Assembly (NCBI RefSeq): GCF_057098645.1
Contig: NZ_CM169472.1
Reading direction: 5' to 3' (one strand)
DNA: 64,000 nucleotides
Below, in pieces: positions 3,935 to 6,900 of this stretch (position 1 is its first letter; each line of letters starts with the position of its first letter). Position numbers: made by a program.

Positions 3935-6900
3935 TAAATTTAATGAAGCATCTATCGCCGGTTACGATGCTTTTCTTAACGCAGCCTGAGCCTGTATATA
4001 AACTTGTCATTTCCTGATTTTGATATGCACATTCCAACATCAGAAGAAGGTTAAATTATGGATGACAAACCATTGCAGGCTCTGGCCAATAAACTCAAAA
4101 CACCGGCTCAAGAAAGTCAGCGTAATGGCTTCTTCCGACTGCAACAGGTGAAGAATAACCAGCCCCGCATTACCGGTATCCCCGTCAACCATCAGGGGCC
4201 CCTGCCTGACATCGCCTGAACATATTCCCCCACGCAACCTGCCGCACTGACGTAGCCCACGCAATACGCGTTTCAGACTGCTCAGTATCTGTAGTGGCGT
4301 TTCATCCGCCTGTAGCACCGGATGCATGAGCGATTTCTTATAGTTATTCCTTTGCTTAATAACGATTATTTTCGGGTCGTTCGCTCTCGTATTTTCTTTA
4401 ATACGTCAGAGCTACCTGGGCCGTAATACAGCATGTACCAGACCCGACACGGCATTTCTGACCTGGGAAAAAGTCAACGATGAGTAGTTATATCAGCGCA
4501 AATGACGTCCTGTGGCTCCTTTGCGGTGACCACATTCACGTCTCCGGCGCTGCCAGAGGATATTTATTTCAAGGATACGTAGCATTATGGCTAGCTTTAA
4601 AGACATCTGCCCATTCGCCCCCGCCATTCCCCCATCTTCCGTTAACACAGGCGTACGACGCCCGCCAGGGCGGCTCTTCCTGTCGGTGGAACTCAAGAAT
4701 CAAATTTTGCAGAACATGAAGTATCTCAGCCCGCAAAAATTCAGCTGGGGTGATGCCCCCTGGCAGATCATTGACCTCAGTATCGCGGGCAAAGTGAACA
4801 TACAGGTGGACAACAATACCATCATCACGTTGGGGACTCCCCTGAATCCGCAACATAACGAGTTCATGATGGTCGCCGAATGGTGCCAATGGGCTATGGA
4901 GCGGGAAGGTTTGCAAGAAAACCTGCAAAAAAAACTGCACGACGTCCTGGAAGAAAACCGGCAAAACAAACAGTCAGAAATTCCCCAAGAAGACCTGAAA
5001 GAAAGACTGAAAGAAATCAAGGAAGATATCCTGGAAGAAAACCAGTCAGCAAGCCAGATTGAAGACCGGGCAGAAGCATTGCGCAGAATGAAGGAATGTC
5101 TCATAACAAGACAGAGTATGCTCGATCTTAGCAACCTTGGACTGACTTCACTCCCTGAAAATTTGCCTCCACATCTGATTGAATTTAACTGCAGTAGAAA
5201 CGTGTTGACCGCCTTACCGGAGGTAATGCCAAAGGGGCTGAGAGTGCTTGAATGTATGGAGAACTTTTTGATCTTGTTACCGAAGGTGCAGCCCCCGAAA
5301 CTGATGGTACTGAAGTGCTATGAAAACTATATTATCTGGCTGCCTGAGCTGTCGACTAACCTGAGAGTGATTAACTGTTCTGAAAACTTCTTGCAATTTT
5401 TACCGCCGTCGATGCCCCAGTACCTGTATAAACTGTCCTGTGCTGGCAACAATATTAACTCAATACCTGATGAGATGCTGGAGAACTTGACTCGCCTGAA
5501 GGTATTCGACTGTTCTAGTAACGATTTGATCTCTTCACCACGGCTGCCGCCCAAACTAATCATATACTACTGTGGAGAAAATCAGTTTAAAACTGTACGG
5601 GTGCCGCAGCCCCAGAGCCTGAAGGTGTTTGACTGTAATGGTAACCCTTGGGACAAAGACAATTTACCGACGCTGCTCAAAGCCGTCGAGAGCCTGAAAA
5701 ACCAGCAGGGCCTGGAGGACCTTTTAGACTTTTTGCGCAAGGAAGGCCAGATTGACCTGGAGGGACTGGAGGAGCTGGAGGACCTGGATGACCTTATGGA
5801 TCTGGAGTTCCTGGATGACCCGGAACTCCTGGAGCGCGTGAAGGTACAGGAGGACCTGGAACTCCTGAATCAGCAGTTGGGCCTGTTGAGTCTGGAAAGA
5901 CAACAGGACTCGCAGCCTGTTAATCAACAATCTGAACATGAACCCGAACCTGCATCAAGGGTGAAGCGTGATTTATCTGAAGTCGAGTTCGAGTCAACAA
6001 TGAAACGTAAGCGTTTTATGTAGAACGCCTGTGCGGTGAGTTCAGGTTCCGGGGAAATAGTGTCCATCATTTTAATGGGCACTATCATGGGCAATGGCTC
6101 TGTCACATTAACAACTACAGTTGCTGACCAGCCGGATGGATGATTTTTTTTGCAACCAGAAGACGTTGCCTCCGATCCGGCTTACAACAAGTTACACCGT
6201 CACAACCGGGACACGTAACGCCAGCGCGCACATCAACTCATAGCCCACCGTTCCGGCAGCGGCGGCGACATCATCAATTTTGATCTCCTTGCCCCACAGC
6301 TCAACCGGCGTACCAATACCCGCCTGCGGGCAAGGCGTTAAATCGACCGCCAGCATATCCATCGAAACTGTCCCTACTGTCATGGTGCGCACGCCGTCAA
6401 CTAAAACAGGGGCGCCGGTAGGCGCATGGCGCGGATAACCGTCGGCGTATCCTGCGGCGACAATGCCGATTCGCTGTTCATCGCGCGCAGTATAGCGACC
6501 GCCGTAGCCCACACGCTCGCCCGCTTTTAGCGTCTGGACACCAATAATCTCACTGCTTAGCGTCATCACCGGACGTAATCCGGTATTGGCGATATCACGC
6601 CACTGACCGGACGGCGAAGCGCCATACAAAATAATGCCAGGCCGAACCCAGTCAAAATGCGCTTCCGGGTGCCACAGAGTCGCCGCCGAATTGGACAACG
6701 AACGCCGACACTCCAGCCCTTCCGCCGCCTGCTCAATACGCGCCATCGCGCCGGAAATTCCATCAGGATGTTCCGCCTCGGCAAAATGCGACATCAGGGT
6801 CATTTCGCCAACATTCGCCATTGCCCGCAACTGCTGCCAGACGGTAAGCACGCGATCGGGCTGGAAGCCCAACCGATTCATCCCACTGTTCACTTTAAGA

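Follow-up and report, generated by a model that had tools for sequence, protein, structure and literature searches.

IS1414 is an insertion sequence placed in the IS256 family (McVeigh et al. 2000, as cited in PMC12585946), and its copies commonly decay by deletion (PMC12585946). In the record of the prototype element, astA (EAST1) lies at 1501–1614, inside the transposase coding sequence at 786–1994. A partial element of this family, decayed by deletion, is thus a kind of feature that is already known, and one of them is found in Escherichia coli K-12, where the interval between cvrA and dadX, much shorter than in the DNA studied here, carries a feature annotated 'IS1414 (partial)'. The same K-12 locus encodes YmgM (b4740), of 67 aa, whose production was shown with a chromosomal SPA tag (VanOrsdel et al. 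2018, PMC6001520). The ribosome-binding site, the ATG and the first 8 or so residues of YmgM (MDDKQLQA...) come from the K-12 IS1414 stub, while past the stub the frame runs antisense into the 3′ end of cvrA; YmgM is an IS-scar chimera.

We analysed the corresponding locus in a stretch of E. coli DNA of 64,000 nucleotides (contig NZ_CM169472.1, RefSeq assembly GCF_057098645.1), hereafter called the window, to whose positions all coordinates refer unless otherwise stated. An earlier note, made from the sequence alone, had pointed out in this stretch an unannotated 53-codon ORF close to a leucine-rich repeat (LRR) gene, and had proposed it as a small chaperone-like or regulatory partner of that gene, or as a remnant. 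The features of the locus are the following:

1192–2106, plus strand: ldcA.
2201–3937, plus strand: cvrA, whose 578-codon frame is intact in the window.
3940–3979, plus strand: hairpin and T-tract 3′ of the cvrA stop codon (GAAGCATC...GATGCTTTTCTT).
3988–4057, plus strand: left terminal inverted repeat and 5′ leader of an IS1414-family (IS256 family) element, located by blastn.
3988–4179, plus strand: all that can be recognised of the IS, a stub of about 190 bp from an element of roughly 1.3 kb.
4058–4219, plus strand: the 53-codon ORF, between cvrA and the LRR gene.
4040–4327, minus strand: antisense 95-codon ORF, a PGAP 'hypothetical protein' in some genomes, judged spurious.
4587–6023, plus strand: LRR gene, 478 aa, with a SlrP/SspH2-like LRR region.
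6192–7262, minus strand: dadX.
7272–8576, minus strand: dadA.
3189–3464 of the K-12 locus segment (NC_000913.3): YmgM region, corresponding to about 3809–4088 of the window.

The start of the ORF had been described correctly. The motif GAAGG at 4046–4050 is followed, after a 7-nt spacer, by the ATG at 4058–4060, and the frame stays open until the TGA at 4217–4219, with the translation MDDKPLQALANKLKTPAQESQRNGFFRLQQVKNNQPRITGIPVNHQGPLPDIA. Taken alone, a length of 53 codons is unremarkable, with 121 ORFs of 30 aa or longer falling wholly or partly in the first 12 kb of the window. The good start signal, instead, is not a product of chance, because it goes back to the transposase gene of an element of the IS1414 family: GAAGG is the transposase's own Shine-Dalgarno sequence, located within the IS leader. 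The left inverted repeat of the window, GAGCCTGTATATAA, begins at 3988 (match at 3988–4001 in a fuzzy inverted-repeat search), and the sequence starting there (GAGCCTGT...) is a terminal repeat of the IS1414 type, the left inverted repeat of IS1414 being GAGCCTGTACATAG....

This origin was confirmed by homology searches. When plasmids were searched with a sensitive DNA method, using 3960–4340 as query, 716 records matched, only over 3983–4179, and the features underlying the best matches were annotated 'IS256 family transposase'. Two references were used for the comparison: (i) an intact IS256-family element on an Enterobacter plasmid, whose transposase matches Pfam Transposase_mut (E 2.7e-119); (ii) the prototype IS1414 carrying astA, of which an intact copy was reached via astA. 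By blastn, the Enterobacter element is 82% identical to 3983–4095 over 115 nt (E 5e-27) and 83% identical to 4121–4179 over 59 nt, and the DNA identity of the stub to the prototype is 80%; this left-end homology assigns the stub to the IS256 family and, within it, to IS1414. In addition, BLASTP of the ORF against the transposase gave two collinear segments (E 7e-06 and 2e-04). An identity of about 80% implies that the stub comes from a diverged member of the family or that it is old.

Little else of the element is left. Searches by blastn and tblastn with the intact IS and its transposase found no further transposase sequence in the whole window beyond 3988–4179; the right inverted repeat had no match in the window, and its terminal 14-mer is absent from 3801–6400. 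Where an intact Transposase_mut (DDE) gene has about 400 codons, the stub keeps about 40 derived from the transposase. The DNA at 3988–4179 is a remnant of an IS1414-family element and not a functional member of the family. Two other arrangements were considered and rejected, namely a composite element bracketing the LRR gene, as the right inverted repeat was not found, and a stub retaining the astA coding region, as astA corresponds to nt 716–829 of the transposase gene, beyond the surviving part.

A gapped alignment with the intact element showed internal deletions of 12, 26 and 148 nt, which sum to 186 nt, i.e., 62 codons, and, therefore, the transposase frame is restored and stays open. 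Codons 1–16 of the ORF correspond to transposase residues 1–20, with the 12-nt deletion; codons from about 17 to 21 form a short out-of-frame patch; codons 22–40 (RNGFFRLQQVKNNQPRITG) correspond to transposase residues 84–102 (RDGSFEPQLVKKNQTRITG). Homology ends at about 4179; codons 41–53, the final 13, are non-IS sequence up to the first stop.

Taken as a history, this map suggests that an IS1414-family element inserted just past the cvrA terminator, oriented toward the LRR gene, and was then reduced to a stub by three internal deletions and by the loss of everything beyond about codon 102 of the transposase. The left inverted repeat, the leader, the ribosome-binding site and ATG of the transposase, and about 40 transposase-derived codons survived, and the restored frame reads 13 codons into non-IS DNA, giving the 53-codon ORF. 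The intact start signal may still load ribosomes upon transcription, in which case at most a short, unselected peptide would be made. We consider it very likely that 3988–4179 is a dead IS1414-family stub and that the ORF is a scar frame, which does not encode a selected protein. Of the possibilities raised in the earlier note, that of a remnant holds, with the specification that what remains belongs to an IS256-family (IS1414-like) transposase gene and to nothing tied to the LRR gene.

The stub begins 9 nt past the hairpin downstream of cvrA. This hairpin is probably the cvrA terminator: it is conserved in K-12, as seen in the alignment with the window, and folds with −9.2 kcal/mol, the z-score being only −1.1, and a simple terminator scan did not flag it at 3940–3979. 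As for cvrA itself, in several LRR-bearing genomes PGAP annotates it as a pseudogene ('missing C-terminus'), and in the same genomes a short YmgM-like antisense ORF is called over its 3′ end. In the window cvrA is collinear with K-12 over the compared 3′ end, and the pseudogene label looks like an annotation artefact.

The comparison with other strains bears on the history of the locus. According to the earlier note, the ORF and the LRR gene lie within the same inserted DNA; this is doubtful, as the region appears to be ancestral DNA lost by K-12, and it is no simple insertion relative to that strain. In fact, the 3′-terminal 74 bp of the LRR gene (5950–6023 of the window, 97.7% identity) are still present in K-12, fused to the inverted IS1414 fragment, and K-12, therefore, represents a deletion scar and not an empty site. 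The K-12 'IS1414 (partial)' feature is 84% identical to 3988–4088, a segment that holds the Shine-Dalgarno sequence and start codon of the ORF together with its first ten codons, in inverted orientation. The K-12 stub is 93% identical to the prototype IS1414, and the window stub 80%; judging from these values, the two stubs probably derive from separate insertions, and K-12 looks like the outcome of its own insertion and of a later deletion that took away the LRR gene. In the O157:H7 strain 9000, an IS3-family element replaces 4053–5907, that is, the ORF and almost the whole LRR gene, and only 3940–4052 and 5908 onward are retained around the replaced stretch. K-12 and O157:H7 lost the LRR region via separate IS-associated deletions. 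The insertion of the element present in the window predates the diversification of the locus, because virtually every genome with the LRR gene also has the stub, even where the LRR alleles are at their most divergent.

If the ORF encoded a small protein, its frame and length should be conserved and under purifying selection. Neither was observed. Thirteen alleles of the locus, 87–100% identical, were aligned, and the 53-codon frame is intact in seven of them, window included. Codon 27 is changed from CGA to TGA in four alleles, one of which also has a 159-bp deletion; one allele has a −1 frameshift and another has lost the stop codon. On a larger scale, 5426 complete E. coli genomes were searched with allele-specific 30-mers, which identified 831 carriers of the 5′ part of the ORF, and at least 477 of these (57%) have exactly the codon-27 TGA allele, which truncates the product to 26 codons. 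A +1 frameshift, in which a run of four C becomes five, occurs on 219 contigs; only 1 complete genome has it, so that it adds little to the disrupted fraction there. The versions of the ORF present in databases are 29 to 86 aa long and have several C-termini, generated by frameshifts and unrelated to one another, and the 53-aa form is found on 469 contigs in a large protein database, in which all relatives are from E. coli (one entry is labelled 'Enterobacteriaceae'). With regard to substitutions, the pooled pairwise pN/pS of the ORF is 0.93, no lower than in the off-frames (0.76 and 0.72), versus 0.01 for cvrA in the same genomes. The frame is, thus, neither conserved across related loci nor visibly constrained as protein.

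Nucleotide diversity (pi) is 0.030 in the leader and start region, 0.045 in the first 26 codons and 0.085 in codons 27–53, and about 0.08 at the synonymous sites of the flanking genes, which is above the values of the start region and of the first 26 codons. Some constraint might act on the DNA of the start region and of the first 26 codons, rather than on the protein; the estimate comes from only 10 alleles over 70–80 nt. Further along the intergenic region, 4136–4290 is the most variable stretch (pi 0.056–0.085), and its several indels include deletions of 30 bp and 159 bp. Next to the start of the LRR gene, the segment 4331–4586 shows good conservation (pi 0.02–0.03), and a 19-bp indel at about 4431 separates the allele groups.

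The alternative that best survives these data is compatible with the IS origin: the stub could have been co-opted in cis, so that transcription or regulation of the LRR gene owes something to the promoter and leader of the transposase, or to translation of the scar ORF as an upstream ORF. We regard this as unlikely. Stub and LRR gene have the same orientation, with no terminator-like site predicted on the plus strand between them, and the lower diversity of the leader and of 4331–4586, compared to 4136–4290, goes in the same direction; however, low diversity over 70 nt in 10 alleles weighs little, and the 159-bp deletion allele, together with the many indels, indicates that the region from the stub to the LRR gene tolerates damage. 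The presence of the stub in nearly all LRR-bearing genomes (831 carriers of the stub versus 834 of the LRR gene) is explained by simple linkage as well as by a role in cis, and its joint loss with the LRR gene in O157:H7 is uninformative in this respect. Moreover, a promoter and terminator scan of 3850–4700 returned no site on the plus strand, with counts no higher than in shuffled sequence, and no sigma-70-like promoter was predicted on this strand. The ORF does lie upstream of the LRR gene, as stated in the earlier note, but 'immediately' is a loose description: 367 nt separate its end from the LRR start at 4587, a distance that rules out direct translational coupling.

A related idea, to which we give a low probability, is that the IS-derived start is active and that the stub serves as raw material, either for a lineage-specific peptide of the YmgM kind or for a promoter or upstream ORF tuning the LRR gene. 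If this were true, the intact and the codon-27-stop alleles would be functionally different regulatory states.

The LRR gene deserves a description of its own. Among 9 alleles, its pN/pS reaches 0.74 for the whole gene and 1.38 for codons 1–171, versus 0.01 for cvrA; this fast evolution could mean that an effector-like protein is being diversified by selection, or that the gene is decaying under relaxed constraint. The protein has a SlrP/SspH2-like LRR region without the NEL ligase domain, and its full-coverage relatives, of 437–486 aa and 77–97% identity, come only from E. coli and Shigella. A contig search with the LRR protein for other species gave a single hit, the 2-kb contig JAIJJM010000586.1 of a MAG labelled 'Collinsella sp.'; its upstream part matches the E. 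coli locus of the window at 96% identity and carries the codon-27 TGA, and the contig is probably a binning contaminant. A literature search combining cvrA, dadX and leucine-rich repeat found no paper.

It is highly improbable that the ORF is a functional small protein, for example a chaperone or a regulator of the LRR protein, recruited from the N-terminus of the transposase. Such a protein would be served by the good Shine-Dalgarno sequence and the ATG at 4058, its 53-aa form is intact in several lineages and common in databases, as noted above, and SPA tagging did detect the K-12 analogue, YmgM, with its homologous IS1414 start site (PMC6001520). By contrast, the truncation to 26 codons in at least 57% of the carriers, a pN/pS of about 1, the multiple independent frameshifts and length variants, and the restriction to E. 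coli and Shigella, outside which no relatives were found, are not what would be expected from a selected protein. The peptide had no match in Pfam and NCBIfam (E ≤ 1), and it is basic, with 7 K/R versus 4 D/E and a net charge of about +3. Class I type III chaperones are acidic proteins of roughly 120–150 aa, and the peptide has neither this size, nor this charge, nor a match to a family profile. The proposal of an LRR partner, chaperone-like or regulatory, is, hence, not borne out by the lack of frame conservation, the neutral pN/pS, the absence of a family match and the IS origin.

Finally, the reading in which the antisense 95-codon ORF (4040–4327, minus strand) is the real gene has almost no probability, since this ORF, although longer than the plus-strand one and present as WP_032162019.1 or WP_001544521.1 in the annotation of several RefSeq genomes, measures 34, 42, 73, 74, 78, 95 or 139 codons from the first start codon to the stop among the 13 alleles, differs between alleles in its N-terminal portion, has no Pfam or NCBIfam match and no convincing Shine-Dalgarno sequence (AAGAAATCGCTCATG), and runs antisense across the IS stub. 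Neither the plus-strand nor the minus-strand frame behaves like a gene. For completeness, Pfam and NCBIfam scans of a 79-aa ORF at 4480–4719 were also empty, and so was an Rfam scan of 3800–4700 (E ≤ 1).

The best-supported interpretation of the 53-codon ORF is, then, that of ordinary genomic debris, unrelated to the neighbouring LRR gene as a partner; a strong ribosome-binding site ahead of a short ORF can be the legacy of a dead mobile element and is no indication of function. This matters mainly for annotation. RefSeq E. coli genomes are inconsistent at this locus, in which PGAP calls a plus-strand ORF in some genomes (53, 63 or 65 aa), a minus-strand ORF in others (51, 78, 95 or 139 aa), or nothing. 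A better label for the stretch would be 'partial IS1414-family element', like at the K-12 locus.

Among the known systems, class I chaperones of the CesT/SycE type, encoded beside effector genes, resemble the ORF only in the position upstream of an effector-like LRR gene, and differ from it in size, charge, family match, frame conservation and origin. The likeness to IS1414 is much closer: the stub shares with it the left inverted repeat, the leader, the Shine-Dalgarno sequence, the ATG and the N-terminal transposase codons, at 80–82% DNA identity, whereas the DDE/Transposase_mut domain, the right inverted repeat and the astA region are missing. As a specific precedent, nothing comes closer than the K-12 'IS1414 (partial)' feature with YmgM. 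Both cases occur at the same cvrA–dadX locus, and in both the left-end stub of an IS provides the start site that opens a scar ORF. On the other hand, the stub of K-12 runs opposite to cvrA and ends after about 6 transposase codons, and the antisense frame of the window equivalent to YmgM has a stop codon inside and no IS-derived start. By analogy with YmgM, translation of the 53-codon frame is plausible and, even so, nothing indicates a selected function for it; what the two loci have in common is a start site left behind by a decayed IS1414-family element.
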